From Strigamia acuminata (Eukaryota), in contig OX442314.1 in assembly GCA_949358305.1 (NCBI GenBank), positions 18,476,001 through 18,540,000 of the forward strand: DNA of 64,000 nt. Direction: 5' to 3'. Position numbers and translations under genes: made by a program. Of this stretch, positions 4,501 to 38,289 are shown in pieces (position 1 is the first letter of the stretch; every line of letters starts with the position of its first letter). The notes under the pieces are model-generated. The model was not told where the DNA came from, searched no databases, and saw only the letters and a list, made by a program, of their open reading frames with translations.

Positions 4501-6216
4501 TGTCGAAACGAGACCGGGCCTATTCTTTACCCTTGGGTTCAATGCCGTCCGTGGCGTCTATTCTAAGTGCCAGTCACATATTGGGCATTAAGGAAGAGCC
4601 CATTTCGTCTCCGTTGATGTTAATGGACACAGGTGAGAGGAGGAGAAGGAGTAAAAGGAGATGAAATTGTAATTGATTTTGTAATTGTAATTGATAGATG
4701 ATGATGTGGACGTACACAAACAGAGCTTTTCCGGCGTTTCGGGCGGGGGCTTCCTTGGACGCCGGGGAAGTTTTGGCGCTTGCGATCTTGGCGGCTCAGC
4801 GGGCGAGCAGGATTCGCGCGTGCTCACGTTAGCAGAGCAGATTATAGCGGCATTACCAGATCGAATCAAAGTGCCGGCGAGCGAGGCAGAGGAGACGATG
4901 GACGACGTGCAGAAAGACTTGGTGACAAGCACGAGTTCCGATCACGGCCACGAGGACTCGGTAGAAATGAACATTGAAGATTCGTCGTCTTCGCTTGTGC
5001 GGGCGGCGGATGCAGTTTTTGACTTTGAGTTCAGCGATCACACATACCGGTACTGTGACGTGGGAACGCCAGCGTCTTCGTTGAGTCCCACGTCATCCTC
5101 GTGTCTGCAGAGCCCTTGCAGTTTCACTCTCGACTCGCCGTCGCCACCGCCCACCACTGCCGATTTTTGCGAATTCTTTCAAGCTTCTGGAAAAATTATG
5201 GAGCGCGACTTCTCCAATCTTACTCTCTCTGGTATTTTGGCTTTTTACTTCGAGGGAAAAAAACGATGTCTGCGTAATCGAATGTGTTATGTGGTTGCAG
5301 ACAAAGAGCAGCGAGAGTTATACGAGGCAGCTAAAGTCATTCAAAAGGCTTACCGCCATTACAAAGGTCGAAAACGCCAGGAGCAGGACAAAGAACGTGC
5401 GGCCGCCATCATCATACAGAATTACTACCGTCGATATAAACAGGTTCTGCCTTTTTCTTCTACATCATTCCATATCGAATACACTTCGAACCATTATATT
5501 TACTCTTTTCAGTATGCGTACTTCAAACAAATGACTAGAGCTGCTTTAGTGATTCAAAGCCAGTTTCGCAATTATTGCGAGCACAAAAAGAGGTTTAAGA
5601 GGAGTCAGGAAGCCGCTGTTTGCATCCAGAACTACTATCGCAGCTACAAAGAACAACAAGAACGACTGCGACAGAGCCGGGAATCAACCCCGACTAGTTC
5701 AGGACTCAAGTAATTACAATCTTATCAGCAATTTTCATTTCGCTCAAACGTTTTCGATATTTTTAGACGCACCTATTCGCAGAGACGGCAACATCAGGCA
5801 GCTCGTAAAATTCAGCAATTTATGAGGCAGTCTAAGAATAAGTGAGTGATTTTTGTTGCTTTTTAAAAAGCTCTTTATCTAGGTTAAGTTGTAATAACTC
5901 TGTTGGTCTAATTGGATTTTTCTCCTCAATTTTAACGCTAACTTAGCGTGTGGGATTATTTGGATGGGAAAGCGGTGAGTCAGCTTGCGCTTGTCTTTTT
6001 TACTTGCCATTTTTCATTTTTGGTTCGCTTTTTTTCCCCTTTCCTTTCCTTTCCTTTCCTTTCCTTTGCATTGTTTTGTCGTTAGTGTGTTTTCGTTTGT
6101 GGTTTCAAGTTAACGAAACGCTCGATTTTTATAGATTACAGAAAGAGCGTGCTTTGGCTGCCGGAAACGAGACCCTAAGTCATCGGTCACGTCGGGACAG
6201 TCACCAGCCACCATAA
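1529..6216 (+). CDS. CAMTA: Calmodulin-binding transcription activator (5'-partial, multi-exon)
   Basis: The exon starting at 1529 reads [12 protein letters not shown], the end of the CG-1 DNA-binding domain. Also present: IPT/TIG domain ([23 protein letters not shown]...GVLRCFCP), ankyrin repeats ([24 protein letters not shown]) and IQ motifs ([44 protein letters not shown]). Introns are GT-AG. The 5' CG-1 exons lie upstream of the window. Confidence 0.97.
3590..3634. repeat. (TTTTA)n microsatellite in a CAMTA intron
   Basis: Direct tandem TTTTA units. Confidence 0.85.
5947..5974 (+). other. Putative 28-nt alternative microexon of CAMTA
   Basis: gctaacttag|CGTGTGGGATTATTTGGATGGGAAAGCG|gtgagt. 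Inclusion keeps an open frame through the last exon to TGA at 6252-6254. Confidence 0.65.
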
Positions 6217-9200: not shown

Positions 9201-9410
9201 AAATCATTCCAAAAATCTTTTGCCTCTACTGTTTTCAACCTTTTATTTTTGCCAATTTGAACGCTCCAATCCACCACATCAATATTTATACACTTCCACA
9301 CAAACAATTGTTATTTCGGAATCACCAACCCAAAGAAAATAAGGAATGTCTTTAGGCTTATCCTATTTGAACATTATCTTTAATCCAAAATGAGAAACAG
9401 AAATTAACAA

Positions 9411-12400
9411 TTAATATTTTCTACTATCATCATCATCAGATTTAATAGTTTTTGATTTAATATCGGGTTCATCATTGCCACTTGCATCTACGTCGAAACT
9501 TCCAATTGTCCTAGACCTAGACGATGCCGACGAAAGCAGCGATGTTTTACTCTGTTTATCAACCTCATTTGTTTCCTCAAATGTAGGCTCTACAAGCGTT
9601 ATTTCACTTTCACTTTCGTCAACTATCGTCATTGCATCTACTACATCAAAAGTCGTATTTGACTTCAGGTTACGGCTGCTAGTTATTGATGCGGCGTATG
9701 GTGCATTGAAGGTGGAGTCAGACTTTTTATATCTGCCACTAGTTCGTGTAACTCTCGTTTCAAAAAGGGACATATTAGGAGTAGCTGGCAATTCACCAGA
9801 AAACCCTTTTTTACCCATTAACCAATAGGTGGAAATTGTACCTATAGACTGAAGAAAAAACATTTTAGTCATTGCCAATATGCAAAAAGTCACTGAACTG
9901 GAATTTCCAATTCCTTTCTGAACATCAAATAATATAAACCGGTTTCATGTAGTAATGCTGCAGTTGTTTCGGATACTTGCACCGCGTAAGCTGAAATATC
10001 GATTTTATTTTTGTTTTTATTTTTGAATTTAAGTTTTAAATTAGAAAATTCTACGTTCTCCTTGAGATTCCATATGCTGCGCAATTGTAACGTCTTCACC
10101 AATTATGCAGTAGTAAGGCATTTTTAAACCAATGACTCCAGTAACGCACGAACCTGCATCAAAGTAAAAGGCTGTTAGTCTTATTGATGCTTAGTGTTTC
10201 ATTTATTTTAGTTTATTTATTTATTTTATTTATTTTGCCAGAGTGAATGCCAATTCGAATTTGAAGTCGTTTATATGGGATGTGTCTTATTGGGAAACAA
10301 GTAACCGCAGATAAAATGTGCAATGCCATTGTAGCAATGTCCTCGTGATGAAATCGATTTGCTGTAGGAATTCCGCCAACAACGCAGTCTAGAACAACAA
10401 AAGAGTGTTTGAAAATTATTAATATTATTATTATTATTATATTATTATTATATTATTTGTTATTAATTATTATACTATATTATTTAACAAGAAATCGCAA
10501 TTTCTAAAACGAGATTCGCAGTTTGATTGAATGTTTCGATCGGGTTTCGATGCAGGTCAAGCCAAGGTAGATGTTTTTTTTCTTCTTTTCTTTCTTTCTT
10601 TCTTTTATGTATCGTACATCGATTTGGTTACTTCATCCCGGGATCATTAGGTTTAATTCAGTACCGGTAGTGTTTATTAAAAAAATAAACTTGCAGCGCC
10701 CGACATATGGTTAGCGATGCCAAATGCATTTAGTGCGCATGTTAATACATAACATGGAATACGCAATTAGTACAATTTATTTTCCAAGATAAGGGAAATG
10801 AATAAGCTTTGATGATAAAACATCGGCACCAATGGCGGTCGTTATTTAAAAAGTGCAGGCAGGATGGCGGGGCGGGGACGGGATTATGCAGCTTATTTTA
10901 GTGAAACGAAAACTTACATACATCTCCAATAGTTTCCACCTTGAAAACACGAAATCTTTCGATAATATTATCAAAACATATGTATAAATCATTGAGTAAT
11001 TCAATAGTTTGCTCGGGTGTGCTCTCCTTTGCAATGTTTGTAAAACCGACAATGTTGCTACAATTTCATACAAAAGAAAGTTTTAACATTATTGGAAAAA
11101 TTGTACCATATATACCATAAACATCACCTATAAAATATAGTTACTTCACTATGCCATTCAGATATTGCATCATTACCCTGCTTAATGTTTTGAGCTACTG
11201 ACGGTGGCAAAATTCGCGAAATTAGTTCTTCGGTTTTACTTTTTTCTGATTGGATCTGAATGGCTTTTTCATTCAGGATATCTTGCAAGTGGTACGAATA
11301 TTTTTCCAACTACAAATCATACCATCAGTGTATCAACAAAATTAGATAACATTTCCTTGTGTAATTAGTTAATAATCGTTTGACCCTCGGTTTGCTCACT
11401 GAAGATGGTAGTTTTGATTTATTGTTTATTGTAGCGCCATTAATTTCATTAAAAGCACTTTATTATAGAGTTATCAGTTATTAGTTAAACTCACCATGTA
11501 AATGAGATTCTCAATTAGTTCTCCTTTTAAGGGGTGAATGACATTCAACTTTGCAGCTATTTCGCTAAAACTAGGTCGGTTTATTGGCTTTTCGGATGTG
11601 GTTTCTGATATAAGCTTGAAAAAAAATTTTAAACATTAAAATTCCATTCAAACTATCCAAAATCCAATCGTACTTTCATCACTCCCTTCTTTTCGGCAAA
11701 ATTATCAGGCATTTTAGGATTTTTTAAAGCGGGACGGATTGGACGTTTTGTGTCATAATCATGTGCTTCAAGAAGCTTCAAAGCAACTTTACAATCTATA
11801 TACATACAGCATAAATCAATTGTATTATTTACCCTTTTTATTTTTATGTTTTCAATATCTTCATGATCTCTCAGAAGTCTTAATAGCTCGTCTATTGATA
11901 AAATTTGTAGCTCGTGGAAGTAAGCAGATTTGTGAGTACAGATTTCAGTGAGAATGATGCCAAAAGAGAATACATCACTAAGTTTAGTTCCATTGTTTAA
12001 GTCATTAGGAGATGTGCAAACTCGCAACAACTCTGGAGATGTCCACAGCATGTATCTAAAAATGGACAAACCATCTTCAGTTTTTAACCAAGAAGAAAAA
12101 GTAGGCTACATTTACCTCTTCGTTTCTTCTACATAAACTTTAGAATTAATTTTTCGTATTCTTTGAATACCAAATCCTGTTAAAAATAATATTAAGTTCT
12201 CAATAGTCGGCTGACTATAACTTAGTCTGTGCCCGCTTGACGTCAAATTCAAACACTAAATTCCATTTTATGCGCACGAAAACACAAAAGAATAATACCA
12301 TTACCTGTTATTATTTCTAAAAATCACGCATTTGTGCGCAGTCAGGGATTTGTCAGTTTGATTTTGGAATCAAGAGTCCGGGCGCGAGACAGTTGTAGTT

Positions 12401-15400
12401 AAGCTCACCCGCTATTTTGCACAACCATTTGTTATCTATGAGACAATTTGAAGATTTTAAACGACCGTGAGACACAAGCTTAGTACTGTGTAGATATTCC
12501 ATTCCACTCGCAATGTCTCTCAAGATGGAAAACTTAAACGGCCATGTTAAATTGAAAACTTCATTCGCTAGAATTTTATCCAAACTTTCCTGAGTTGCAT
12601 GAAAAATATTACTGATTTTATATAACGAGGGAAGTGAAGGGTTCTTATTAGGCATACTTTAGGCATAATCTCCACAAGAATAGCTACGTTTGGAGCGTCG
12701 GGACAAATGCCATAAAAGCGGATCAAATTATCGTGTCTTATAGATTTGAGTAATATTATTTCGTCCCTAATTTCTGGTGAATTTATATTCAACGAATCTC
12801 TATCAAGTTTCTTTGCATATAAATCTTTTCCTTTCCAGACTATTGCGTTTTCAATATATGAAATTATGCTCGGAATGGTTCCACCACGACTTGAGTGCGG
12901 TGTGTCGATTTTTGGGGTTCGAACAACGTATGGCAGTGCAGTTAATGAAGGGCGATTGGAGAGTCCTAATTGGGTTGTTGGCGTAGGCACATCGGTTGGT
13001 GGCATCTTTTCTATAACATCTTTCCAGTTTACAAGCCAGTCAGAATTCCGCAGTTGTTCTCGTCTGATTCGCCTGCAGTCGATACAATTGCACATTAGTC
13101 GAAGGGTCAGCACGTGTCGAACGATAGAATCTAGGACAATTGAAAAGTTAACAGTGGTTTGGCGCCGCAAATATCGTGCGAAAATCAATGCGGAACAGGA
13201 AATGAGGGTGGCTGTATCCAATTAAATTCCAAAATTTGAAAAAATGTGTAGTGATAGCGAGCAATAAGCTCATCTGTCTCACCAATTAAGACAAGCATTA
13301 AATTATTTGTGATTATTGTAATAATTGCGTTAAATATTTTTGAAACGAACCACCGAGTTAACAAGTTAATCGTCCTAGGTAGAATAATCGCCCGATTTTT
13401 AAAAAATCTTATTGTTTTTATAGAATCACTTACATTCTCATATTGCATTTGTAAAAGTTAAAAATAATGGTGATCGCACCCACAATGCAAATCACAATAG
13501 CAATTATAAGAACTCCAGTCATGACCTGACAACTTTCGCCATGGTAGCCGACATAACATTTGCAGTAGTTAGGATGCACACATTCTCCATTTAAGCAGCT
13601 TACACTAAATTATAATTATAAATTAAATTAAGTTATTCTACAATAAATTATACACTTAATTATGGATACTTACGAACATATTGCAATAGCGCAAAACGGT
13701 CCAGACCAACCTTGGTGACAAATACAATTGAATGGTGATTTACACACTCCGTTTTGACAACTTTCACAGATAGCTGTATCGCAATTATCACCGCTGAATG
13801 CAGGTTCCATCGAGTTCTCTACTGTTTCATTGGAGAATACTTCGCCCACCCTATAACACCTGCACTCATTAGGACGCACACAAACACCATTCTTGTATAT
13901 ATGAGCACTTGTAGAGTCTATTCTTCCACCTCCACATCCATTATCGCAGAAAAAAGCTGGTAAAATCATATCAGTTCGGAGACTAAGCTGGCTCAGATTT
14001 TCAGTATATTTTTCGGCTGTCAGAGTTAAGGTTATGAATTTCATATGTCCGCGTGTGGACAAATAGCTGAGTAATTAAAAATAGGCTTAGTAATGTTTTT
14101 AAAATGTGTGAATCGGACTTACAATCTGGGGATAAGTCGAGTTTCGTTAGGTATTCGTAATGGAACATATGGCATGGAGAACGTTTTCATTTCGGCGCTA
14201 GAACTTCCAAGTGGTATTTCGATGATTCGCTCTAAAGTTCCTGAATTGTCCAATTGGACATCTCTCTTTTTCTTTTTGGCGTTTTTAACTATGTTTCCAA
14301 CAAGGTAATCATTTACACTAAACAATCGTGCTATTTTATCAATCTAAAAGTAAGATATTGGTGTCAAATTATTCCAGTTAAAGCTGTACTATGTACACAC
14401 ATACAAACAATGGAGGTTTCTTAACATTTCTTAGGTTTATTACATTTACTACGCCAACAAGTGTACCCCCCCTCCATTTTCCGTTTGGGAATTCTATTTT
14501 ACCAGTTAAGCCTTCAAAACTGATCTAAAAGTAAGGTAATGATTTATTTATCGTAAATCCCGTACTTCAATAGAACAACTTACTTCTTGTATCGTTTTCA
14601 CAGTTGATTCAAGGGTAATAGTTTCATTTTTTCGAATCAGCTCGTCTAAAGCGATGGCATAACACAGAACTACGTCATACCCCAAACCAATTTCTCCAGA
14701 AAGCTAAAATAATAATTTAAATAATAAAAATTTTAGGAGTATTTTGAATTTTGTTTCGTATTTCTTGGCAATATCTAGCATATTCTGAATAAACCCTATA
14801 CTATTATTATAGATTTTCGAACTTTGAAAGAGCGTTTAGCAATCGGTATTCCATTGTACTCGGCAGAATTCATTTCGTAGAAACGACGATTGATGTGGTA
14901 CCACAGATCGGAAGAGTAACCTGATACGTTGTGCACTCCTTGAAATATCAACATTCCTTCAAATGCTTCAGAACAAGTAGGTGTCTTTAAAGAAAGAGAG
15001 AGAAATAAATTGCCTTTGATGCTTATGTGCTTCAGAAACAAACGTGCAAAACATCAAAGCCGTGCTAGAATCATCAAAAACCTGTTGACAATATTCATGG
15101 TTGTCCTTCCAATCGAATTCTTCTTCCCCCAACCATTGGTAGCCGTGCATAGGAGCAAATTTATTACTGAAATTTGATCAGATATGCTCGGTCAATTACA
15201 TCACTGATTTATCTACTCATTTTTATCTACTTAATTGCTTGTCTGAACAGCCAATACTGCTTAGGGGGGTACACATGACTGTAAACTATTTTTGCTCCAG
15301 TTTTCTTTGCGTTTTCTATTTCTGTTGATAAGTCAACAAGATCGTCTACATGAATCTGGATATGGTAATCAATATTAATTAATTAATTATGGAAAAGAAA

Positions 15401-18323
15401 GTACCGAGTGTGCTACCGTGTAAGCATTGACAAAGCCATAAACAAGCAGTGAAGCTGCGAATCCGTAATCGACAGGTAAATCTGCATCTTCAATATTAAT
15501 CTACAAAAAAAAATATTATTTCAATTATTTGCTGATTTTTATGTATTAAAAAAAAATACTATGTAAGTCCACTGACGGTCAACCAAGAAATGACCTAAGA
15601 AAATAGAATATTGCAGCTCATTCCAAGTTAGAGCAAACAGTCCTGCTCCTGGATAGAACTCCTACGTTTGGGGAAAGAAAATAAAAGTTGCTGATCCTGT
15701 TTTGGCATGTATAAAACTCAAAGACTGACTGAACGAATAAAGGATTGCCATATTTCTTTATACGTTAAAATGGGCATATTAATGTCGGAAAGTTGAGGTA
15801 ACATTGCATCAGTTATCACATTATCACCGAATCCGATTATAGCTCTTGTTGTTTCGTGCGATTCACTCTGACAATACCCATGGTAATTAATATTTCTATA
15901 TAACCAGAAAAGGAATTTTAAAAACTTACTGCATTGATTGTTTCCAACATTTCATTGAATAACCTTGCAACATGTGCAATATCGAGTTCAGTGTCGTACA
16001 CCTTTAGTTTAATCGTGTGATCTTCAATGTATAAAGCTATTAATTTTAAAAAAATTACCGGTAAGTGAAACTATTTACTTACTTGAATTTTTAAGAAATT
16101 CAAACTTATTTTTGAATATTGGATCATTATTTGTCACATCGTTTATTGCAAACTGTGCAAATGTCGCTGATACCGCTTCAGAATCAATTTCGTGTCCCGC
16201 TGTATTAAAACGTCCGAACAAGCCGATATTTATGTCCCCTAAAAATATTAATTTATTGAGTAATAGTGAAGAAAGTAATGTTTTACGTGAGAAATTTACC
16301 TACACTCGTGTACGGTCTCGAAAGTTGTGACTCTAGAGTATTAATTCGCCTGAAACCCAAATCAGCTGTAAACTGGAATCGCACATTCGCTCCAGTCTCG
16401 AGAATGGCACCCGTGAATTTTCCGATTCCTCTGAATGTTTTCAATCTTCTATCAGAAATATTTATTGGCGGTACTGTTGTAACTGAAATTGGCTGAAGAG
16501 ACAACAAAGTTTGTGTTCATGATAAATGGTTTAATTTGTATAGACTAAAAATACTAACTAATGCCGAATCCAAACCAGAGAAAATTCGTCTATTGTTTTC
16601 GTCTAGTATCATTATCCATAAATTTGGTATGGCAAAGTGGGTGGAAACGGAAATTAAGGTGTCATTACTTCCACCTGTCATCTCGTTTTTACCTTCAATA
16701 TTATTAATCACTATTAATCTGGAAGCTAATTGTCCTGGTTTAATAAAAATCACATTGATCACTTGATTTAATTAAAATAATAATAATATGCTGATATATT
16801 TACGTGTTACAGTTATAGGTGCACTCAACTTGACAGATTGCAATGCATTGTTTGAGCAGTTCCTATTCAAGCTGTAAAGTTCCGCAATAAATGTTTGTAT
16901 TGGATAGCTTGAAAGACACACAGTATCTGAAGGGTCGCAGAATTGTACGAAGTTATATTGACCGGTACTATGATAATTTACGCAGGAGGAGACAAACTCT
17001 AGATAATCCATCGGTACTCGCGTCCCTGATCGAGGCATTAACAATGTTGCATTGAATAATACACTTCCATGTTTTTTGTTGGTAAAATAAATTTCTTGAA
17101 TGATTACATTATCAAATTGAACTAAGCCATTTACGGCTCGTTTGTGAAGAACTCGATCATAATTTCTGTAAGACGTGATCACTTCATCCCCTGCCAGTAC
17201 AACCTGCAATAATAAAAGAAGAAAATCGAAGAGATTTTTTGTATTTTGTTTAATAATTACTCATACTGAGGTATTGTAGACAAAATCTTGAACCAGAGCT
17301 TCTCGGGTGAACATCTTATCGTGATAAGACACTGTCACTTGCACAATGAGTGTAGAATCTAGACCATTGGTAATTCTTTGGGTTTGGTTGTTTGCATCAA
17401 CAATTTCCAATGATATAGAAAATGGGTTGTTAGCGGCGATTGAAAGCTCAGAACTTGGCTCAATCCATCTTAATTGGGCTGATCCTAAAGAGATGCCAAT
17501 GCTTCATGTTGCTGGCTGAATAATATCCTCAAGATTAATTCACATTTTAAACACTTACGCAAGTGAATTTTAAAGGGGTGTGTGAACGTGCTTATTTTTT
17601 CGAGTGGAGTGAGTTTGATGGTAAATTTGAGTCTTCGTAATAAGTATCCACTCTCTTCGGTTACTACATCGTGAGAAATTCCTTGTGCAATCAACTGATT
17701 GCCTTGTATTTGTATAGAAAGAGGCGTCGATTCAGAAGAACCATCTTTATTCTCGGTGCAGGTTGTTCTTAAAAATGAAATATTATACGATTCCATATTA
17801 ACTGAAATTTAGGATTTAATGAGCGTTACTACTTGAAATAAGGCCCGAGTTGGCTAAATCTTCTGGGATTGCTTAAATCAAAGTCGTTTGCTGCATATTG
17901 GCACAAACTTAATTTAACATTATCTCCGCTTATTAGCTGATCGATATCCTTTTCCGTTACAACTTTTACTGGCAATGTGGTAACATAAAAAAATCTAGGA
18001 TGTGTTGACGTTGAATACATCTCGTCTGTTGGGGTAATGGGTTGGTCGTTACTTTTGCACAAATAAGCCACAATTGGTCTGCTCATTCTTTGTTTATTAG
18101 CAACTGAATAAATTATTTGCGAGTCGTCAGTCGGCTCAGTTTCCGGTGGAAAATAGTTATTAAATACTCCTTTACTTGGGAAGCAAATATTATAAGCTAA
18201 AAGAAAAATTGGGATTATTTCTAATTTACTTCCCATTCCCATCCCAATGTACTCACCTTGAACCTGGATTTTCTCAATAAGTAATTTGTACACGTACATC
18301 AGCAATAAGAACTGATAATTCAT
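9411..18323 (-). CDS. Atypical receptor-type guanylyl cyclase (probable pseudo-cyclase) with N-terminal extension, ANF-receptor domain and EGF-like repeats; many short exons
   Basis: Signal-peptide-like start [15 protein letters not shown]-receptor-like domain from ~16238 (INIGLFGRF...FAINDVTNN). EGF-like repeats ([46 protein letters not shown]). TM helix [18 protein letters not shown]. Kinase-homology domain ([32 protein letters not shown]). Hinge (MEKYSYHL...[18 protein letters not shown]). Cyclase domain ([20 protein letters not shown]). Confidence 0.93.
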
Positions 18324-18437
18324 TTTATTTAGTTAAAACTTTATTGCGTTATTTAGGGTAAATAGGTTTTGACATTTTATTGAATTGTTCAAAAGAAAAT
18401 TGTATTGTTTAGCTAAAATGGGGGATTGTGGTGAAAA

Positions 18438-20104
18438 TCACAATACTAATAGTTTACTTCGGACGATTTTTGCTGCTTGTGTCATAGTTTTAATTGTCTT
18501 TTGTTTGGTTTCTTGCGTATTCTTCTTGTGCTCATTACGATGGGCCTTATACCATTGCTCAACTGGGCAAATGTAATCATTTTCTAAGTCAACTGAGTAT
18601 GTTAAATTTGTTTCGAAATTGACATACTTTGACAGTTAGTGCAAAAATAATATTTATATATTGGCCTCTTCGCATTTCGACATCTGAACAAAATGTTAGA
18701 GCAATAAATTTTTTTGTTTTGTTTTATATATGAGAGATGGAGATTTTTACCTATTACACACTATATATTTCGTTAAAATAGTTCCATTAGTCCCACAATT
18801 GTCACAATTTTTTAATCGCCGCCTATCAACTTTGAATGGTGAAACGTCCGAATATGTGTCTGTAACACTTTTACGCGGCGAGACTGCTATCTTTAGACCA
18901 TTTTTTGTTTTTATTGTTTTTATTGTTTTTTTTTTTTAAATTAGAAGGAGATTTTTATTATTAAATTAAATCCATAATTTACCAGTTTTCCAACTTGGCT
19001 TCTCACTGTCTTCAATTTCTCATCAAATTCGCAAATCATTTTTAGCCTTTCACGCTTTCGTTTTTCAATGACTCTAGTAATTTCTCCAAGGTGTTTAATA
19101 TTCTTTGTCATTTCGCTATCTTCACTCAGTTGAAATATTTTCCCTTCTTTTTTCTCCAACATATTACGTATCCAGCTTACTTGATTACCACCGACACCTA
19201 AAAATGTTACTAGATCTTCTCGCCACCACTTAACCAGGAACCTTTCAAGAGGCCGTGCTTTAAAATTTACATCTAAATAATCGTGAGGAATGGTCCAATA
19301 ACTCAAACTTTGATCTTCCATTTTGTCTGCACTTAACCACTTATAGAACACTTCGCAGAGAGCTGCACCAAAAGATATTTCTGTAAGATTGACGGTTAAT
19401 AACCTAACCTAAACCGTGAAAAACACAAAACAACTATAACATCTGATACTTTCATATGAAATACGACGACTACTTTGTCTGTATTTGTTACGGCTGGTGC
19501 AGAAGGTTCGTCGATACTAGTCGGTAACATTTTCTCTGCAAAATCACGATTGTTAAACGTGAACACAAATGTCAGAACTTTAAGTACTTACTTGGAAGCT
19601 TGCTCATTAATCTAATGACATCTAAACAATATTGACATTTTTCGTTAGTAGTGCCTAAAATTTCGAGTTAAATTCAAATAAATGGGTTTTGGAGGATTAC
19701 TGGTAGTTATACCGTCTAGTAAATGAATGTGAATATATTTATGAGCAGTTGTCATCATTCCTGGCAATTGTTCTTGTATCTAAAAATAATAATCAGTGAA
19801 TAAGTTGTTATAATAGATATTAAAAAAAGGAAATACTCTACCCATTTTAGAAGATAACAGTCGGGATTTAAACAAAATAATAACCAAAAACGAAACCAGA
19901 AAACCAAACCCTAAAATAAAAAACAAATTTTTATTTATTTATATTATATTATTAATTTTTTAAAGAAAATTTCATTACCTGTTCGGTTATCATTTGTTTA
20001 AAGAGAGCGGATCGATTGAGAACGAAGTTAGGCCCGCAACCAAATTTCATAACGTTGTAATAAGTATTAGAGTTTTCTTGTAGATTCAAGGGAACCAATT
20101 TCAT
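18438..20104 (-). CDS. Uncharacterised protein with C-terminal MYND-like zinc finger, paralogue A
   Basis: Hand-spliced GT-AG exons: MKLVPL...FGCGPNFVLNR / GLVFWFRFWLLFCLNPDC / ...KCQYC... / ISFGAALCEVFYKWL... / CDNC..CNR / CRNAKRPIYKYYFCTNCQ / EQWYKAHRNEH...LLVL*. Intron positions match paralogue B. Confidence 0.85.
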
Positions 20105-20353
20105 TTTGATTTTGATTGCAGTTTTTGTAAGTAATAGAAGATAATAAGTCTCTCTCAAATTTCGAAAGTCGAGTTGTGGATTTCAAACAATCAGATTTTT
20201 GTTTGGTTTGTTGACGTACTCGTATTTAGCCATCAATGAACAATTGAAAAACAAACAACAATCTTCAGCATTTGAATTAAACAATTGTTTTTATTGAAAA
20301 CACATACGAATCACAACAAAAAATAGTAAATCAAGGTTTTCTGTTTTTTTTTT

Positions 20354-21959
20354 TCAGTTTAAAGGAAAGAACTTCTTTTCTTCTAGTCTTTTTGTTTTGT
20401 ACCGAAATTCCAACAACTCTTCCATTAATTCACGGTGTTCTTTTTCATGACACTTAAACCAATGTTCAACTACACAAAACAGAATTTTAAATTTAATAAA
20501 ATTAAATAATTAAAATTAAAATTAAGTACCTTCGCAATTAATTTCACAATAATATCTTGGTTGCTGCCATTTTTCATGCCTACATCTGTGAAAACAATAA
20601 TTCGTTAGAAATTTATAATCATTTTCAGATTGTTAACTCACCTTCTGCACATCAAAAACGATTTTGATTTACTTCTAGTAGATTGACAATTAGCGCATAC
20701 ACGGCGTTTATTATTCATTCTTTCTATGTCGTGCATTAAAGTATTTTGTTCATCAGACGCTAAGTGCCTGCTAATCTTCTAATAAATACAAATTTAAAAA
20801 AAAATTGCTTAGTTTCAATGTACAAGTAATTATTTTATTTTTATTTTCACCTCAAATGTTTCGCAGCACTTATTTGTATGCATTTCATCCAGTAAATGGA
20901 TCGACGTTAGCCATCTTTTCGTAGCCATTACTATAGCTTGAACAATTTGGTAGGTGTTCTCATTGTATCGGGTAGTGTTTGTTAATTCTGATTTTAAACT
21001 CTTTAGATGATCGTGTGACAAATCACTCGGCCAACGAATTCTTTCTGCTGGTTCACCAAGCAGGATAACCAGTCTCTCTTCCCACTTTTTGATAAGATAT
21101 CTCTCTAATAGCCTTGGCTCGAATTTCGAATGTAAATATTCTTTGGGGATCTTCCAAACGCACTCCCACTTCTCGTCCGTCGCTGTTGCTGTCAACCATT
21201 TATAAAATACTTCACACAAGGCAGCACCGAATGCTATTTTGACGCAACGAGAAGTCATCTCGACCAAGGAAGGATGCTGTAAAGGAATGAAAATTAATTA
21301 ATTGTAATTGAAAGGTTTTAGAATGCTTTACTAGTGGTTTATAAATATTACTATCCTCTTCTGCTGACAACGGTAACACATCATCTAAAATTTATATTTT
21401 TTTTGTAATTTCATCTCTTGAGCTTTATGTAGTATTTAAATTCATTTTACCTGGGTGATTAGTCATTGTCTTTATTATATTTAAGCAGTTTGTACAAGAT
21501 TCATCTGCGGGCACTAAATTAGAAAGTATTTAGTAATTTACTTGCTACAGTGTATATACCATTTGTGTTTACCCTCTAGAAATGACTTGTGGATGGCAAT
21601 GAACAAACGATGCACCAATTTTGGCGATTGTTCCTCTAGCTGATGGGCAAGAAAGTTTATTTCATTTTAAATGGAATTTTGCTTTGAATTACCGATTTCA
21701 TGTACTGGCAACCGGGTTGGAAGCAAAACGTCAGCCAAAACCGGAACCAAAATGTGGAACCCTCAAAAAGTAATATGTCATTTGATTACAAAAATAAGTT
21801 TATAATTAAAATTATCGTCGGTATTTTAGATACCTGCTCGGCAATCATGTCTCTAAACAGTATTTCTCGGTTTAATACGAAGTTAGGCCCACAGCCAAAC
21901 TTCAAGATTGCTTCGTAAGAAGTTCTGTGGTCTTTTTGAACCAGCGAGATGAATTTCAT
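20354..21959 (-). CDS. Uncharacterised protein with C-terminal MYND-like zinc finger, paralogue B
   Basis: Spliced exons: MKFISL...FGCGPNFVLNR / GSTFWFRFWLTFCFQPGC / ...SCTNC... / IAFGAALCEVFYKWL... / VCANC..MCRR / CRHEKWQQPRYYCEINCE / VEHWFKCHEKEH...FPLN*. AATAAA lies downstream at ~20290. Confidence 0.88.
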
Positions 21960-22148
21960 GATTACAGTAGTTGGAATTAAAAGTGTTTGTTTAAATTTTC
22001 TCTGTAAATTTCGGATTACTAATCAAAAATGGATACCGTATTTATACAAGTGTGTGTACTGAATGTATTTTATAACAATTGAGAGAGGTTCATGACATAC
22101 AGAGATTTTATTGGATAGTTAAATAACAAACAATTTTTGAACATTTAT

Positions 22149-23192
22149 TTATTGTTCATCTGAGAATACTTTATCAGGAGCTGTGGTGTGCTTTAATATC
22201 TTTACAAGTTCTTCCAAATCTTCTCTAAACATTTTAACCAACCATGTGTTCATCGAAAACTAAAAATATATTTTTTTTGTATACATTTTTGTATATGAAA
22301 TTGTTTAATTTTGTATGCGATACCTGTGGTATAGGCAAGTAGTGAGTATTATCTCCTATCGGTGATTTTATTACTAAAAGTAAAATAAAACACATCAAAT
22401 AATAATTTATTTTGTGTGTCTAAAGCTAAACTTTTTATGTTATTGTGATTCAAGATAAGCCTTTTTATTCGGGCATAAGTCGGGGCTTGAAAATTATTTG
22501 AACCGAAACACAATGAAAAAAAAATTGGACGAAAACAAACGACTGGTGGTCATTTAGTGGTTTTGTCCGTATCAGAAGGCTTTTACTGAATTTTTGTACC
22601 AGAGAGTCTTCTTTTTCTTTTCAATAAGCAATGAAAAAAGTGTTTTAAATAATGACGTATTGCATCTCGAGGTTCATCTAATTAAATAAGAATCATCATA
22701 AGACAAGGTTTAAATTAAAAATGTGGAATTTTAAATTACCTTGCTCAAAACACGTATGTACAGTTTTGTAAACAGGACAAATATAATTTAGATCTCTTTC
22801 ATTGGAAACCTTAAAAATATAATTTTATTTGTACATAAACTTCGGATGAGATTGATCTTACTTTATGAATGCTTTTTTGAGTGAGATTAAAACAAAATAT
22901 TAGCCAAAAACGTAACCAAAACTGCCACCCCTAAATATTAGCTCGAATTAATGGGCGAGAAGAGATGGAATAAATTGCATTTTACTTTGTGCTTGATAGG
23001 AGTGTAGGCTTTGAATTCACCATCGCTCTCGCTGGTTTTACTGCATTTACCCGATTTACTCGACCCGGTAATGCATTCTATGACCGAATCGTGTGAAACG
23101 ATTTTGTTCGCAGGAGCATCTTTTTTTAGTAGCTTTCCAAAAAGTGAATCTTTGATGAGAAGTTTCTTTTGCTTAACTTTATCGCCGATCAT
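22149..23192 (-). CDS. Divergent, shorter paralogue C of the same family, lacking the MYND finger
   Basis: Different first exon (MIGDKVKQKK...), then GWQFWLRFWLIFCFN, and a last exon WLVKMFREDL (compare FLVKWWREDL in A). Six phase-compatible exons end at TAA, followed by AATAAA. Confidence 0.65.
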
Positions 23193-24179: not shown

Positions 24180-24375
24180 ATTCTAGCCTATTATTAGCAT
24201 TCTAAACTTGGCAGCACACACTAAGCAAAGTTCTAGAAAATTGGGCAGTTTTGTTGACTACACAGAGGCTTTATTTCCCTGACCTATTTCAGGTATGATG
24301 TTCCGTAAACACATAAGTCATGCTTGACAAACAAGCAGTGTAATTCTCTTATTTATCAGGACAGTGCTTCGTAAT

Positions 24376-26140
24376 ATGGAAATGGCGCATTCAAGTAGAC
24401 CTGGTAAAAAATCGCCTAAAAGGAATTGTTCGTACGGTGAATTGGAAACGAAAAAGGATGTTGAAGTGAGCATTCCTGGACTGGGAAGACTGACGGATCC
24501 TTCATATGGGAAAAAGAGCAAACTTGTATGGTTGCTAATAGTACTGTGCTGCTCTGTTGCTTGTGTTTATTTGACCGTTGATAGATTAATGCACTACCTT
24601 AGTATTCCTTTGGCCTCGAAAGTTGAAGTAAATCGAATGAACACTGTCACGTTTCCAGCGTTTACAATATGTTCTAGCAATTTACAATTGGACGGTTTCA
24701 AACAGTTGGCTAAATTAAAGACTCGTGAAGAATGCATCGCTCGAAATCGGAGTGATTGTGAATCGGAGGCGGAATATTTAGGTATCTAATTAGTTATTTT
24801 TATTTGGATTTTTTTAGCTGATTTTGTTCCCTATCTTAGTGCAATAACAAGTCTTACTGTGACTATTTACGAACCTGAAATAGACGTTGATTTAAACTTG
24901 GCTTATTATGTATGTGAATAATGATTTGTACAGTTTGATTATATAATACCCAAGTGTTATAAGTTTTAAAAAAAAAATTGTTTTTAGCTAATTCCGCATG
25001 GTGTAGCTGATGAGCACTTGATGGGATTTGAGTTTCTCATCAATGAATTTGAGCTTATTCCAGCTGGCAATCTGTTGAAAGTAAAACTACACGAGGAAAG
25101 AGTAAGAAACTATAAACAATCACGATTACCGGTACATGTTTAATAATATTTTTTTTTATATTTTGGATTTTGCACACAATAGTTTCATTTGAAGAATATT
25201 GGACAATCAAAATGTTATGAAATGAAGGAAGAAGTAGAGCGCATTAAAAAATGTGCTACCGGTACTGAATTACTTCGAGTTGAATTGTGCAGGTTAGAAA
25301 ATCTTAAGTAATTAGTGATGATAGTTGCTTAATTTTGGGCTTTTAGTCTAGTTAATATTCTCTTATTCTTAGTCCAGTCTTACATCTGGTTGATTAAAAA
25401 ATGAGAAATAAGATGTTTTGGGTTGAGGTCATTGTGTTTGAATTATAACATTTGCTACAAATTGAAAAATAGCAAATATTATTTAATTTTTGGTATAAAA
25501 TCAGCAAAACATCCTAGTTTATGGTGATTATCATTGCGTTAACAGATTATAAAAATATAAGATGGAATCGATTATACTCGTAAGCATACATAATATCGTA
25601 TTGAATTTTATCGTGTCCCAAGACAATCAGCACCTGATTAAAATGAAAGTGACAATCGTAGGCGCATGCGCACATATAGTAGATTATAATTATTTCCTGA
25701 AATCAGATTAAATTACTAATATGATTTAAAACGTGTTGAAAAATAGAATGCCTAGCTGTCCAGAGTGTACTCTCCAATGTAAGTCACTGAAGGATATCCC
25801 AGAGCCTGATGAAAGAATGTTCAATACATATTTGGCAGTACTAAAAACATTCTGTCATTCCCGGCCAATATGTATTGAATCGCAATATGCGATTTCAATT
25901 GATACCGCACGAGTTGAGAAGAAGAAGAACGATAAGAAAACAACTATAATAATTCGAATGGCTGATGATACAGTTGATACTGTTGAACAATTTATTTCTT
26001 ATACGTTTCCCAGTCTAATTAGTGACCTGTTTGCTTATTGGAGTTTCTTTTTAAGTTTATCCGCTCTTGTTTTTGCTGAAATTTTTGAATATCTTTTTAA
26101 AACACTTGCAGAATGCATTAAAAGGTGTTGTGCCAAATAA
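24376..26140 (+). CDS. Divergent DEG/ENaC (pickpocket/ASIC-like) subunit 1, internally deleted, possibly a pseudogene
   Basis: TM1 (VWLLIVLCCSVACVYL), hallmark motif VTFPAFTICS, Cys-rich thumb (CHSRPICIESQY) and TM2 region (YTFPSLISDLFAYWSFFLSLSALVFAEIFEY). Lacks ~65 aa present in the paralogue. Confidence 0.8.
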
Positions 26141-26969
26141 TATATCAAAAATAAATTCCTAAGATATTTTTAATTTCTAGTGTCCTACTTTTTTGTTTTT
26201 TTAATAAGCTTATAAATTCTGTTTTGAGAATATTTTGTGAGCATTTTATTTTTGTTTTCTAATTTATTCTCTCGACTTGTTGTAATCGCAATAAAAGATC
26301 ACCAATTAACAAACTACGTAAACTATTTTTCCAAAAGGAAAGCAATATGCTGAAGTTTAGGTTATAAATTATTTCTGGTTTGATATAAAACAGCATCAGC
26401 AAATTGACGTTGGAAAAAGCTGCACCCTGCTGCTTTCAATAATATGATACCAAGTATCAACGCACACGTACTGTATTTTGCAACTCGTAAGGGGAAAATA
26501 TGATGAACAGTTCTTAAATTAACTGAAGGTACAAATTGAAATAATAGTTATTTATGATTTAGCATTATTTTAATATGTATATTGCACCATTTAGAAAACC
26601 ATTCATTTTGTTTGATATTCAATAGGACTGAGTGTTTGACATTTTTGAGGTTTATACAAATATAAAAAGGATGCTCTTTTAATTTAAAGAAGATAACACA
26701 CATGTTATTTCCAGTATTATCAGTAAAACTATATCCGCATCCTGTAAACACTAACAGAATTTCTCGTGCTATTTGAATAGCATCTTTTTCACCACCTTCT
26801 AAAAATATAAGATATTGGAGAAGTGGCGGAAATCTTCAGACCTTGAGCTGCACGGATTGCTTGTCGTGAGCAACTCGGCTACCTATCTGCATTCAAACTT
26901 GCCTACGTAAGTGTGAGAAAACAAGATGGATTGTAATTGTGCTCTGATTAATTGTTAACTTACAGGCAA

Positions 26970-28760
26970 ATGGAGCTAGACAATTTCACCGAAAACAAAG
27001 TGTCAAAACATTGCTCGTGTTGCCAATTGAATAAGAAAAAAAACGTTGATGTGAGCATTCCTGGGCTGGGAAGACTGATGGATCCTTCTTATGGGAAAAA
27101 GAGCAAATTCGTGTGGTTGCTATTAGTACTTTTCTGCACGATTGCTTGTGCTTATTTGACCATTGATAGATTAATGCACTACTTTAATATTCCTCTGACC
27201 ACTAAAATTGAAGTTAGGCGAATGCACAATGTCACTTTTCCTGCGTTTACAATATGCTCTAACAATATTCTATATGGGTTGAAGCCTTTAATGACATCAA
27301 AGGTTCATGAAGAATGCATAGCCCGAAATCGAAGTGATTGCGAATCGCCGTCGGATCTGGAAAATATTCCGTTTCGTGATTTAAATGTTTCTTTGGAAGA
27401 TACATGGTATGAGTACGGTTTTTCTTTCGCTGACATTGAAGTTAGTGTAGTGGTAAGAATATTTTGTATTCAATCAAGACTTAAAAATAGCAGATGTTCA
27501 CTTTTATCAACTTGATAATTGGGTATGGTAATGGTAACGTTTGGATCTTGAACCATTAGTCTTCCAGATGTACCAGCAAAAGTGAATGCTTTCTATTTTT
27601 AATATACAATATTAATATTAATATATTTTAATAATCATCTCTCACCGTTTTCCTTGTTTGGGTTTTTGTAAGGGAATGCCGACTATTAATGTTAAAGAAT
27701 ATTTGCTAAATAACGAGACTTCAGATTCAGACGGATTTGAATTTACCGCACAAGACATCATCATGGGAAGTTGTGTCGTTTTTAGGCACAGTAAGTAAAG
27801 CTTAAACAGACAGTACATTTTTTTTGTTAATTACCGTAGTTATGCTTTCTTTTTTAGCTGGCGTAGTTCCTTATCTTAGTACGGCAACAAGCCTCACAGT
27901 GAATATTCGCGAAACTCCAATAAACCCAGATTCAAAATTGGCTTATACTGTTTGTTCTTGTTCATAATAAATTTTTACGGTTTTGTTATATAGCAAGTGT
28001 TATTTAAAGATTTGTTCTTAGCTAATCCCACACGGCGAACGTGATGACCAGTTGACAACATTCGAGTTTCTCACAAATGAATTTGAGGAATTTCCAGCTG
28101 GTTACGAATATAAAATAAAACTTCATGAAGAAAATGTACGTAAGCAAAAATAATCATAATAATTGTATTTCATATTTTACACTTTTTGTCTAGTTTTTTT
28201 TAAAGAATACTGCATACAAAGCCTGTTACGATCCGACGGAAGAAATTAGACTAATTAAAGAATGTGCCACGGAGTTGCTTCAACCCGAAGTGTGCAGGTT
28301 GGTGAAGTGAAAAAATGATTAAGGTTCTGAAAACAAAAAATTAAATAAACGTTTGAAATATAGGCTGCCCGGTTGTCCCGATAGTTATGCCGAATGTGAA
28401 TCATTAAAGGACGTTCCAGAGGTTGCTGCTGGCGAAAAATATAATTCATTTTGGATGGATCTTAGCAAGTACTGTTTTCCGCGACCCGTATGTATCGACA
28501 CGCAATACATAATTTATATTGACACGTCAATGGTTAATGAAGACAGTGAGAGCACAACAATAACAATTCGAATGTCTGATGATACCATCGATGTTGTTGA
28601 GCAAGTTCTTGAGTACACGTTTCCTGATTTAGTAAGTGACTTATTTGCATATTGGGGTTTCTTTTTAAGTTTAACCGCTCTTGTTTTCGCTGAGATTTTT
28701 GAATATCTCATAAAAACACTTCGAGAATGCATTAAAAAGTGTTGGAGAGGCGCCAAATAA
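26970..28760 (+). CDS. Divergent DEG/ENaC (pickpocket/ASIC-like) subunit 2
   Basis: TM1, VTFPAFTICSNN, MGSCVVF, CFPRPVCIDTQY and YTFPDLVSDLFAYWGFFLSLTALVFAEIFEY. Tandem paralogue of the gene at 24376-26140. Confidence 0.9.
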
Positions 28761-30816: not shown

Positions 30817-33800
30817 TTATAATTTCATTTCCCAAAACAACAAATACGCGTCGTTAACATTTACAGTTGGATTGTTTTTATTTAAGCCTTTTCTAACGTC
30901 TTTATAACCTCTTCCACCCATAATAGTAAGCAGTGTTCTAGGAGCATCTGAACTAACTTCCAATTTACTAGGTGAAGCTACTAATGGCTCCGCAATAGAA
31001 GTTGCTGAAGATGTCCTCGATGAGTCACCATCAGAACTAGACGACATATAAATAGGTGCTGTGGCTGCTAAATTGGTCAAATCTAATGACTTGGGTCTGC
31101 CCGCCTTCACTCTGAGCCTACGATCCAACGTGCTTATTGTTGTTGGTAAAAGCAAATCAGGTTCACTTCGTCGTAGAGATTCGTACAACGACGATTCACC
31201 ACCTTCGTCGAAGTACTCGCGAATGTTCAGCAAGTCACCGTACAAACCGTACACATCATAATCCCCATCAGTGTGGTTAATCCCACTGTCCTCGTCGTCT
31301 TCCCTCGACATTTTCAATGTTGAAGATGTAGAAATACTCGGCTTGATACCTGTGCATTGAACAAAAACAATTTATTTTCGTGTTTAAAGTTAAACTAATC
31401 AAAGTTACAATTTTCACTTCTGAATTATGATCAACAGAAGAAATTGCAATATAATTTTAGTTTATGCTTATGCAATCACGTCATTGAACTCATTATGCAG
31501 TTAAAAAGCATTCGTAAGTGAAAAATCCATGCAACATTTTAACTTGCCTGCGAACAATCCGGGTGTACTAAACTGAGCTCTGAGCGGCACCTTTGGTGTG
31601 ACGGGTGCGGAAGAACAAGACAGTTGTTTAGTCAGTTTTAAATGTATCCCCTTATCATTGTTCATTTTTGGTGGCGTAGACACCGTGCTGGGACTCGTCA
31701 ATGCCAATAAGGTAGTAACTGGGCCAGCTAACGTATGATAAGAAAGCGAGGCTCGACCGCTAATTATTGGAACTCCTTCTAAACGTGGTAGTGGAATGTT
31801 GAGAGCCACGCCCGCATTTGTTCCAACCCACAGAAGTCCTCGACACGCCAACATGGATGTGACAAAAATGCACCGTGGAGATGTTTGGTCGTTTTCTAAA
31901 ATTAAATCAAATAGATCGCATCAAAAATGGTACATTTTCCCAACAAACGTCAGATAACCTACCCGATACTCTGCCGATGTTTGCGGCAATGTTTATGTCT
32001 TGTAAGTGTTTGAATGTTTCCATATGATACAAGCAAACAGTGGCCGTATTGCGCAAATTGATCCATAATCCAATACCGGACTGCGCTAATATGTAAACGT
32101 TGCCTAGTTGTTCGTGGTTGATAGTAAAACTTTTCTGTAATTGAAAGTGTTTACCGTACATTAAATAATTTTATAGCAATTTTAAATGCGTTTAAACTTA
32201 CCGCCACTTGTCCGGTTTGACAATCAATTAGTGATACTTTCCTGCCACACGCGCAATAAATAAAATTTTTGTAAGGCAACAAAGATGTCACTGCATCCGA
32301 TCCCAAATTAACGATCATATTTTCCTTTAAGCACCATCCCTTCTCTAAAATTTTATTAATTTAATTAATAACTATTTAATAAATACAATTTTTTCCATTT
32401 TCTTACCTGACTGACGGAAGATGACGACGTTGCCATTGGCCAATCCAGCGTACATTTTGTCCATGTAGCGCTTTAACTGCAATACTGGAGCTGAAGTGGC
32501 AACATATCCGAGGCTTTCACGCCGTTCTGGATCAAATCCAGAATATACTAAAATTCTACGACTGTCCGTCCCCATCCACACTGTCCATCCTTTAAGTCCA
32601 GTTTCTCTCGGGTCTAAACCTGGTGCTGGTTCCATGCTTGAGATTCTCACTTCAGCGAGTTCAAAAGAACAAATCTTTTTGACATTTACTTGTCGCAGGT
32701 TTAAAATACTGAAATAAGTAATTACAATTAACGGTAAAATAATAAAAATCAATAGAATTCCTTACCTAATATTACTATTAACACCATCGCTGCTGCACAC
32801 CCAGACGTAATTAAAACTTTTACTACTCGCACCCTTCCCACAAGTCGTATAATAACACGCACACTTCACTTCGTTATTATGCGGTGCGCTGTGCACCGAT
32901 GTAGCCCTGACAAACAAAGGCATTTTTGTGCTCGGCCTCAGTTCAGTTTCGGAAATATTCCACGCGGGTGAATTATTAAGATCTGCTTATAAAAATTAAA
33001 CATAATTATTACAATTTTTTTAAAAAAATTAATTGATAGGTTTTAAAAAACAGAACCTAATGCCAGTTGTGCCATTCTTAGATCGGTAATCCACTCTTTG
33101 GTAACTGAAGGTTTATTGGTTTGGAATGTAATCAGTTCTTTCGAACTCCTTTTAAAACAAAAATAAAAAAATGTCAGTTCCTTAGCAATTGGAATTTGTT
33201 GATGTATACTCTTTCCGAACTCAAGAAGAGCCCTGGAAGCTGGGCTCCCATTGGCCGAGCTATCTCACTAGTGTAGCAGTAGTTGCATTGCAGTTCCAAG
33301 TAGGCCAATGAGAGCCCAGCTTCCAGGGCTCTTCTTGAGTTCGGAAACAGTATAGTTCTTACTTATTCTTCGAACAAATATGTAACTGAAGACAACAGTT
33401 ATCGATCCACTTTACTTCTTCATCTTTTTCCTGAATCTCGCGTATAATTTGTTGCGCATAATTTTGCAAATCTGCACCGAGACCCTGTTGGAAACAAAAC
33501 CAGTTACAAGAGTGAAAAATTAAATATAAAACGATTTTTTCTTACATCGTAATTTCGTTTTAAACTCGCTGCTAATGTAGTCATTCGTCCAAATATTTCG
33601 TAATCATGCATCAGATCGCCCATTTCCTGATATAAAGCATGTGCGCTGTCGCTCGCACCTTTGCTATGCCTATTTTTAACTAAACCTTTCACTAATAATC
33701 TATTTAAATTCGGCGATAATTCTTCTTGAATTTCCACATCTGACACTGGAACCGCCCATTTTAATGAATAACGTTCGTTGTTCAAGCTGTGACCAGACCT

Positions 33801-36800
33801 AGAAAATTTTAAAAAAGAAAATTTAATTAAAATATTCCGAAGGTATGAGATTTTCTAACAATTTTCTAAAAATAAACTTACGACTGAGAAACAGACACAC
33901 AGACGAGTAATTCATTAAGAAGATATAATCTCCTTTCTTTACTCTTAGTTATTTGTCCGTCTTGATCGAATTTGAGTTGTGAAAAGTTATCTTGTCGAAG
34001 AAGGTACTGCTGTTTGCTTCCTTCATTGATAGACTTTAGCGAAAACTTCGTTGTTACGTGATGAATGAGTTCTTTCACGGCGTGGTGCTGTTCGCTTTCC
34101 CGTTTCCGTTCATTCAGCATTTCAGCCAGAGATTCGAGTTGTGTGAGAGCTAGCTGCAAATTCATCCTATCGTGATGATCATGGGGAATGTGTTTAAGTA
34201 AATCCTTCAAAAACAAATTCAAATCAAATTTAACGTGCCTGTTCAAATTACTGTAGTAATATAAATAAATACCTGGAGTAAAAGTATAAATTGTGGAAAT
34301 CTTTGTACAGGTTTCACCATCAAACCAAAAAGAGACAACCGGTCATTGCTGCTGATTTGTTTTACTTTTAAAAAATCAGCAAATGCTGATTTCCGTTTCG
34401 ATTCTTGCCTAGCCAACTCCATAGCTGTTGAAAAGTTATTGATAAAATCACTGTACATGTCGAGAACCATGGATTTAGAAAACTACAAAGAAAATAAAAA
34501 TATGAATAACAAAGTCGTTCCATTGTCATCATTTCTCTCTTTTCGTACCGAAGCAATAAACACGTCTCCAATTCTTTCCTCCCTGTCCCACTTTCTAACG
34601 CAGTCAGTCAGAGCAATCCGAAACATAGCGTGACACTGCTGAATCTCTGCCACGCGATCAAATAACACGTCAATCTTCGATTTACTCAAAATGGGCGGAC
34701 TGCTCTCTTCTAACGACTTCTTATAATCCTAAAAACCAAATACCAATTAGAAAAAAATTCAAAAGCGTGACAGATCACTTTATTTAGCTTACGTGAAGTA
34801 TTCTTTCCAACGCAGACACGTAGGCATTCTCACTGTGAACCAAATTGGTGACGATATATCGTCGCTTCACTTGTTCAGTAGTTAATCCGGCAGGCATGGG
34901 TGGCAAAGATGGGGGACGAAGCTGCATTCGAAGCGATTTTCGGCAATCGGTTCCTTCTTCAGCCACCTGTGACAACTTTCTCCGAATAACTTGACTACTC
35001 TTCTCTAAATCATATTCCTTTCGCCAAGGAAACAAATAAGTCTGCCTTTTTTCACTCTGCAATGAATTTAAAAAAAAAAATTAAATTTCAAATAAAATAA
35101 AATAAATTATAAACTTACTGGCATAATGGCTTCTTTATCTCTATCATCTTTACTTTTACTCATTCTTCTCGTAACCACATTCTTCAATGTGTTCTTGATA
35201 CTCGCCAAACTCACTTTTCCAATACTTTTATCACTCTCATTGTCACTTCGATCTTCGTACGCGTCAAACTCGTCTAAATCCTCACCACCGTTATATTCGA
35301 CAGATCTGTGCGTCATGCCAGATCTGTTTGGATGTCTATAAACGACCGAATTCGAATCCAAACTCTTTTCTATATCTTCGTATATGTCGTCGTCTGAGTA
35401 AACACTGCTGCTTCCCTTTTCGCTATTATTCACATCTAAAAAAAGAATAAAAATATTTAACATTTCCTCACACCTACAAATATCCTTTAAACAAGAATGA
35501 ACTCGCATAAAAGAATATTTTATTCAAAAATAGAAACAAAAAAAAAAGAATCAAAAAAGTAATTTACAGTTTGACCTTTCGTGACATTAGAAACATTCAT
35601 TCAACTCACCTTTGAAATACCCATCACACGTTTGTCTGTGAGAATCATCATACAGCATATAAACTGGTTCATCAACGGCAGATTCCCGCACTCTCGAATA
35701 GGATTCCAGGTGAGGCTTATCTGAAAACACAATCAACAAAACTTGCTCACGTCGATTCGAAGAAAGAAAAAAATGAAAGATGAAAAAGAAAGAGCACCAC
35801 CCTCGATTTTAAAAAAACATTTTTCCAACTTTTCTTAAATATAATCCGAATTAAAACGTCCTAGATTTCCCAAGGCTACCAGGTGGCTTAATTCTTGTAA
35901 ATTATTCATCCTACCTAATTTAGAACCAGCACTTAAATCGAACCATTGATCCCAACTTAGAAACGAAATAAAATTCGTACCTCCTTAACATGTCGGGCGA
36001 TATGTAGGCCACATGAACAAAACTCGTACAAACTTTCTTCCAAATCTTTTTTCTCTTTCAAAAATGACTAATTTCCTAGTACAAGTAAATGCCTTCGAGC
36101 AACTGAAATGTCATTAATCCAATCCACATTCATATCCTCACTACTCCAAGTGACTCACATACAGAAAAAAAAATTAACAGCCAATTGCAAAGTTATGCAT
36201 TCAAGATGGTTGAGACCAACAAAAAAATTGGCTCACAGCCAACAACATGTGTCTCATTCTTTACTTCACTTTCTTTTTTATAAAAAATAAAAAAAAAATT
36301 AAAAAATAACAAAAAATTATTTGAACTTTAGACCTTGAACACATCTCCACATTCAAATTGGAATAAATAAATAAAATTAAAAATTAAAAAAAAAAATTAA
36401 AATCAAATTAATTTACAAAAAAAAAAAATTAAAAAAATAAAGAAAAAAAAACACTTTCAAATTCTTAATTTGAAAAGGAAGTTCCAAATCCCATCTGTTC
36501 CCTCAAACAACTTCCTCCATCTGGAGATCAGTTTAAACCACCAGACCCCAACCAAGCAAGGTTTTCAATTCCCCACCGGAAGTTGGACCCCTTGTTGCAA
36601 AACAAGTTTTCTTACCACGAGATAAAGATGGCAGTCTCATCCATCCCTTTCTCTTCGACATCGGCGTGGAAGTTCTCACGGGTTCCATTTTTAACACGGG
36701 CACCGTATCTCTCCTCGCTTTACTTTTCGGCGATGCCAACAAACGCGCCAAATGCGAGCGTCTCTCCGACGGCAGCGATGGCAACTCCCTCTGCGACATC

Positions 36801-37786: not shown

Positions 37787-38289
37787 AAAATAATAGCTTT
37801 CTAAAAGATAAATAAAAAAGATAAAAAATATTTGTAATAAAAATAGTTTGAGCCACGTGCTGTAAAAGAAGCAATTCGTCCATTCTTAAAACACTGACGT
37901 CACGGGTATCACGACCTAAGAAATTATATACGAATTGGGTTAAAAAATTGAAGTTAAGAATAAAACTTCGTGACTATTTTATCTTGGAAAAAATATCCCC
38001 TATCGGGTGAAGAATGTGTCTTTTATTCACTGTTTACCAATGTTTATACTTTATGTAATCAGTAATCACAAACATTAAAATCAAGTTATGTGCTTCACGT
38101 GCTCGCGAAGTAAACAAATGTTTTGGGAAATATTTTTCGACTGAATTCAAATTGACGATCATCGGTTTCGGTTGATTATTGTTCGCGGTTTTAATTCCGG
38201 ATTAATGTTAATCCACCTGTTGTTTTCACAAAGTTTTCATTGAATATTCACAAATATTTTTGAAAAGGATTAAAAACAAAAAGTTGCTC

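Follow-up and report, generated by a model that had tools for sequence, protein, structure and literature searches.

An undescribed tandem family of MYND-type finger proteins with an unnamed N-terminal domain in the centipede Strigamia acuminata

The stretch of Strigamia acuminata DNA analysed here (64,000 nucleotides of contig OX442314.1, assembly GCA_949358305.1, positions 18,476,001 to 18,540,000; called the window below and numbered from its first letter) carries a tandem cluster of three minus-strand genes, A, B and C. They represent a real, undescribed, lineage-specific variant of the MYND/C6H2-finger proteins with an unnamed domain in front of the finger. From their sequences A and B are predicted to be intact members of the family, while C is best taken for a copy that has decayed or been remodelled. 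The features, with protein lengths in amino acids (aa), are:

18438..20104, minus strand: gene A, predicted 377 aa in nine exons (Strigamia maritima-only profile, E 9e-86)
20104-19979, 19910-19842, 19779-19713, 19654-19592, 19535-19474, 19408-18983, 18890-18751, 18683-18628, 18562-18438, minus strand: exons of gene A
19157..20104, minus strand: N-terminal helical domain of A, about aa 1-213, fold predicted on homologues
18528..18806, minus strand: MYND-type Cys6His2 finger of A, aa 300-348, across exons 7-9
20354..21959, minus strand: gene B, predicted 370 aa in nine exons (S. maritima-only profile, E 2e-79)
21959-21834, 21761-21693, 21639-21573, 21513-21451, 21384-21332, 21276-20851, 20778-20642, 20585-20530, 20469-20354, minus strand: exons of gene B
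21019..21959, minus strand: N-terminal helical domain of B, about aa 1-212, placed by alignment with family copies
20435..20697, minus strand: MYND-type Cys6His2 finger of B, aa 296-344
22149..23192, minus strand: gene C, a likely degenerate copy (S. maritima-only profile, block search, open six-exon model)
22862..22930, minus strand: second exon of C, carrying the G-x2-FWxRFWLxFC motif
22200..22420, minus strand: remains of the big exon in C, in three frames (block search)

The window is of eukaryotic type, with short, AT-rich introns; in the gene models GC content is 0.21-0.27 in introns, versus 0.35-0.39 in exons. Its six-frame translation has exactly three copies of FWxRFW, in the second exons from which an earlier note on this DNA had proposed three related genes, and that proposal is borne out; these exons (A 19842-19910, where the note gave 19841-19911, B 21693-21761, C 22862-22930) are each 69 nucleotides (nt) long and of phase 0-0. 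The claim of matching intron positions in A and B also holds: all introns of both nine-exon models are GT..AG, there are no internal stops, the phases 0,0,1,1,0,0,2,1 are common to the two genes, and exons 1-4, 6 and 8 have the same lengths (126, 69, 67, 63, 426 and 56 nt). As the note had remarked, the genes were mostly missed as open reading frames (ORFs), since in the list of ORFs of at least 100 aa they are represented by just the two big exons, those of A and B. Searched against 3405 peptides of the window, the S. maritima-only profile finds exon 2 of all three genes and, in A and B, exons 1 and 6 as well (E 5e-39 to 8e-6). AATAAA or ATTAAA lies at, or shortly after, the stop codon of each gene. 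Splice junctions throughout are predicted from sequence and homology; the weak points are, for B, intron 1, which ends in GAG, and for A, the exon-5 donor, chosen from three in-frame candidates, and above all intron 6 (18891-18982), an A-rich intron that contains a short repeat and whose AAG acceptor is rich in purines.

The A and B proteins align over 366 aa with 33% identity (E 1e-72). The third codon position is the least conserved between them (38% vs. 50 and 59%), and substitution at synonymous sites has reached saturation. A transposon or viral origin is rejected: the introns are conserved, the cluster has no flanking terminal inverted repeat, and scans of viral and metagenome sequences gave nothing, a motif scan yielding 12 metagenome loci that match the short motif only and no other exon of the genes.

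Relatives were sought with a profile of the big exon (exon 6) of A and B, a two-sequence profile that may miss remote relatives, against 1.84 billion representatives. Of its 21 hits, 19 are Strigamia maritima UniRef entries, and cluster membership adds one more, giving 20 entries that include T1IGY2, T1IGY3, T1IVL7-9, T1ISU7-9, T1J705 and T1J707. The remaining two hits, the bacterial repeat protein P0019 and the unnamed low-complexity P0021, were dropped as spurious, low-complexity HMMER matches. A word-based search with 18 rows, of poor sensitivity, recovered six of the known proteins and no new one. The family, found so far only in Strigamia centipedes, is lineage-specific; myriapod proteomes seem to be few among the sequences searched, and a millipede among them gave no family match.

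The S. maritima entries share the architecture and exon-2 boundaries of A and B, and by the helix-6 motif they hold 24 domain copies. They are automatic models, labelled "uncharacterized" or "MYND-type domain-containing" (the latter in seven of the 20), several of them fused or truncated. Made independently, these models join the same pieces as ours; in P0022 precisely the 23 residues encoded by exon 2 are missing. The consecutive accessions T1IVL7-9, T1ISU7-9 and T1IGY2-3 suggest tandem clusters. The UniRef models P0001, P0003, P0005, P0006, P0009 and P0022 seem to fuse adjacent tandem copies, and P0003 also joins a triple-SAM (liprin-like) gene to one family unit; both are probably fusions of annotation.

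The finger is C-terminal, followed by only 26-29 residues in A and B. A Cys6His2 ligand set is present in all 14 fingers, with His as the eighth ligand in each, A and B included, and the full Tyr/Gln/Trp triad that binds PxLxP is retained in 10 of the 14, including A. The Pfam MYND profile PF01753 matches 11 of 11 S. maritima fingers (best E 4.9e-8), with bit scores of 24.4 for the P0007 finger and 23.8 for whole P0016 (cut-off 22.7); of the fingers of A and B, exon 7 alone was scanned, and it gave no match. The zf-C6H2 profile PF15801 matches weakly, in two of the 11 fingers (best E 0.053). The fold modelled for the finger is the cross-brace beta-beta-alpha of MYND. The MYND ligand set is given as C4-C2HC, ending in Cys (PMC3555993), and METAP1-type zf-C6H2 is defined by a Cys6His2 set (PMC11672702). 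On sequence, the finger of A and B is MYND-type with Cys6His2 ligands.

The finger of the family is like those of the MYND proteins (BS69/ZMYND11, ETO, DEAF1, SMYD and ZMYND10) in its modelled cross-brace, its C-terminal position, its triad and the long helix upstream, and differs from them in the final His, in a long C4-C5 spacer (11 residues in most) and in belonging to a lineage-restricted expansion with another partner domain: none of the S. maritima entries has a Pfam match to SET, PHD-bromo-PWWP or SAND, as found in SMYD, BS69/ZMYND8 and DEAF1, and there is no room for these beside the finger because the N-terminal domain is all-helical. With the METAP1 N-terminal finger (PDB 7SEK) the family shares the ligand set, but it differs in the weak Pfam match, in having the finger at the C-terminus and in lacking an aminopeptidase domain, no peptidase family being among the Pfam results for 18 family rows.

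The N-terminal domain, of about 210 aa, has a confident predicted fold in the S. maritima homologues, with no clear structural relative. No family was assigned to it in Pfam, NCBIfam or PHROG scans; the known Pfam match that would speak against novelty was thus looked for and not found, and the view that this is a lineage-specific family with an undescribed domain stands. An ESM Atlas search returned reverse-transcriptase clusters at 0.78-0.79, which is chance level, and no usable match once these were skipped.

Within this domain C23, just ahead of a short helix, is present in 22 of 22 aligned copies; R31, Q42 and R49 are invariant; and H82 (21/24), C97 (21/23), C147 (20/25) and E184 (24/25) are conserved in most copies. 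The CxxC proposed earlier as part of a second metal site is not supported as stated, its first Cys being kept in only five of 23 aligned copies; C23, H82, C97 and C147 form a candidate alternative site. These eight residues could also make the domain a thiol- or metal-dependent enzyme or a ligand pocket, with the finger recruiting substrate. The invariance of C23, R31, Q42 and R49, and the 80-96% conservation of H82, C97, C147 and E184 against an overall identity of about 33%, would fit such a role. However, C147 is replaced by Gly in four copies, the first Cys of the CxxC is unconserved, and buried cysteines and salt bridges would be expected to leave the same pattern, and we regard an enzyme or pocket as unlikely.

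In two models of the family an arrangement of six helices may correspond to that of CARD domains (ARC, BinCARD, NOD1, NLRC4) over most of the CARD length. The core of the domain might be a diverged CARD-like death fold, in which case the proteins would be homotypically assembling immune or cell-death adaptors with a PxLxP-reading finger. CARD, Death, DED and PYRIN are not among the 13 Pfam families listed for the 18 rows, a search in which the HMMER filters drop weak matches. This lead, too, must be considered a doubtful one. More doubtful still are DNA- or chromatin-binding repressors resembling DEAF1, which combines a DNA-binding domain with MYND, the end of the N-terminal domain being a helix-turn-helix. 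Profile positions 179-212 align weakly with homeodomain helix 2-3 (E 0.26 and 0.47), and A is basic (61 K+R vs. 38 D+E), with a KRKR stretch. Those E-values, however, are at chance level, B, with 56 against 51, is close to neutral, and homeodomains have a longer helix spacing than is seen here.

In gene C, the S. maritima-only profile aligns with spliced exons 2-4 (E 1e-12), and no finger was found, as the earlier note had stated. A possible open model of 194 aa can be drawn (23192-22986, 22930-22862, 22809-22740, 22677-22600, 22373-22324 and 22259-22149, minus strand), its last three splice sites having been picked so as to keep the frame open. The six exons have phases 0,0,1,1,0, like those of A and B, there is a poly(A) signal at the stop, and among random sequences with the local composition 0.6% would by chance have an open first exon of 69 codons; these points favour the suggestion that C has been remodelled into a functional antagonist without a finger. 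That suggestion is weakened by the loss of the exon-1 block GCGPNFVxNR, invariant elsewhere, and of the FGAALCEVFYKWL helix, by Tyr at the position of C97, and by the conserved blocks of the ancestral big exon, which lie in three frames, starting at 22420, 22353 and 22256. The first two blocks are 67 nt apart, versus 66 in A and B, and are weak, ranking 275 and 207 among about 128,000 positions; the 22256 block ranks 7 of 127,882. It seems hardly possible that C folds as the family domain. The Lys-rich first exon is there (22% Lys), but a swap of the N-terminus is not established: as a degenerate family exon 1 this exon ranks 42 of 127,822 positions, and it may be just that. An antagonist role for C, while possible, is less likely than decay, and we think it improbable; that C is a decayed or remodelled copy remains the likely reading.

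Both DNA runs, which consist of contigs and show no spliced joint at the predicted introns, contain a second version of the middle of C (window 22647-22931), a 121-nt contig with six differences, of which four are intronic, one is silent and one changes the family's conserved His to Arg. Its depth is like that of the long flanking contigs, which makes a second locus somewhat more likely than an allele, although depth does not give copy number. Other contigs, of about 1 kb, match the exon-2 motif of B (window 21716-21753) with three differences and have their own pyrimidine-rich acceptor before a Gly codon; further copies elsewhere in this genome are therefore likely. Two 27-nt loose ends in DNA run X2 resemble proximity-ligation junctions and were ignored.

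An exon of the metabotropic glutamate receptor gene in the window is 94% identical to S. maritima T1IGY4, compared with 60-71% for the other best-scoring taxa, while the closest S. maritima unit is 38% identical to A and 37% to B. Since T1IGY4 is so close, T1IGY2-3 probably represent the same locus in S. maritima. Paralogues at 37-38% next to a 94%-identical neighbor suggest a family driven by conflict.

Taken together, A and B are best explained as members, intact as far as the sequence predicts, of a Strigamia family that duplicates in tandem and diverges fast, and as likely intracellular adaptors, with C likely decayed; we put the chance of this reading at about even. Such proteins would be soluble; by analogy with known MYND and METAP1 fingers, the finger would grip a PxLxP-like motif of a partner, probably a chromatin co-repressor, while the N-terminal domain would self-associate or select a paralog-specific target. 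Genetic conflict, in the germline or in immunity, would drive the fast turnover.

Several results weigh against this picture. The fifth Cys of the A finger is displaced by one residue, and B has Glu in place of the triad Gln. The finger, present in 12 of the 20 S. maritima entries, is absent from the models of the other eight, and it may therefore be dispensable, or have been missed by annotation. The structure predictions were made on S. maritima homologues instead of on spliced A or B, and the invariant polar residues of the N-terminal domain, with E184, would suit a pocket for catalysis or ligand binding no less than the surface of an adaptor. Finally, the family tree is star-like: A groups with T1IGY2 (support 73), and a clade of B with T1IGY3 is rejected (p-AU 0.02, in a tree test from which 11 rows were left out). 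The trees do not settle orthology, and the low identity may consequently stem from paralogy or from gaps in annotation instead of rapid change; a fast rate and birth-and-death would look alike here.

An automatic MYND label was already attached to several S. maritima entries. Literature searches listed no paper on this Strigamia family. In the genome paper (PMC4244043) "MYND" is absent from the main text and from supplementary file 57, a search that left aside most other supplements, among them the table of largest expansions. The unnamed domain lends itself to definition as a new Pfam family and to structure determination, and a centipede expansion (20 entries and 24 domain copies in S. maritima) is added to the MYND-type proteins. 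If the CARD-like lead were true, these proteins would make up a new class of immune adaptors in arthropods: geophilomorph centipedes would have evolved, and rapidly multiplied, a combination of a CARD-like death fold with a METAP1/MYND-type Cys6His2 peptide reader, an immune or cell-death platform outside Dark/Dronc and Imd in which finger-less copies act as regulators. We hold that scenario to be a long shot.

The window also contains other genes. A receptor guanylyl-cyclase-like gene (about 9400-18330, minus strand) has a kinase-homology domain and EGF repeats, its cyclase domain lying outside the scan, and its exons at 16775-18332 gave no Pfam match. Two tandem DEG/ENaC (ASC) genes (24328-28760, plus strand) lie directly upstream of gene C, and beyond them are a RhoGEF-PH-WD40 gene resembling ARHGEF10/17 (30817-37885, minus strand) and the metabotropic glutamate receptor, which is mangetout-like (41892-55672, minus strand). 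At the other end of the window a TIG/IQ gene (1843-5713, plus strand) is CAMTA-like.
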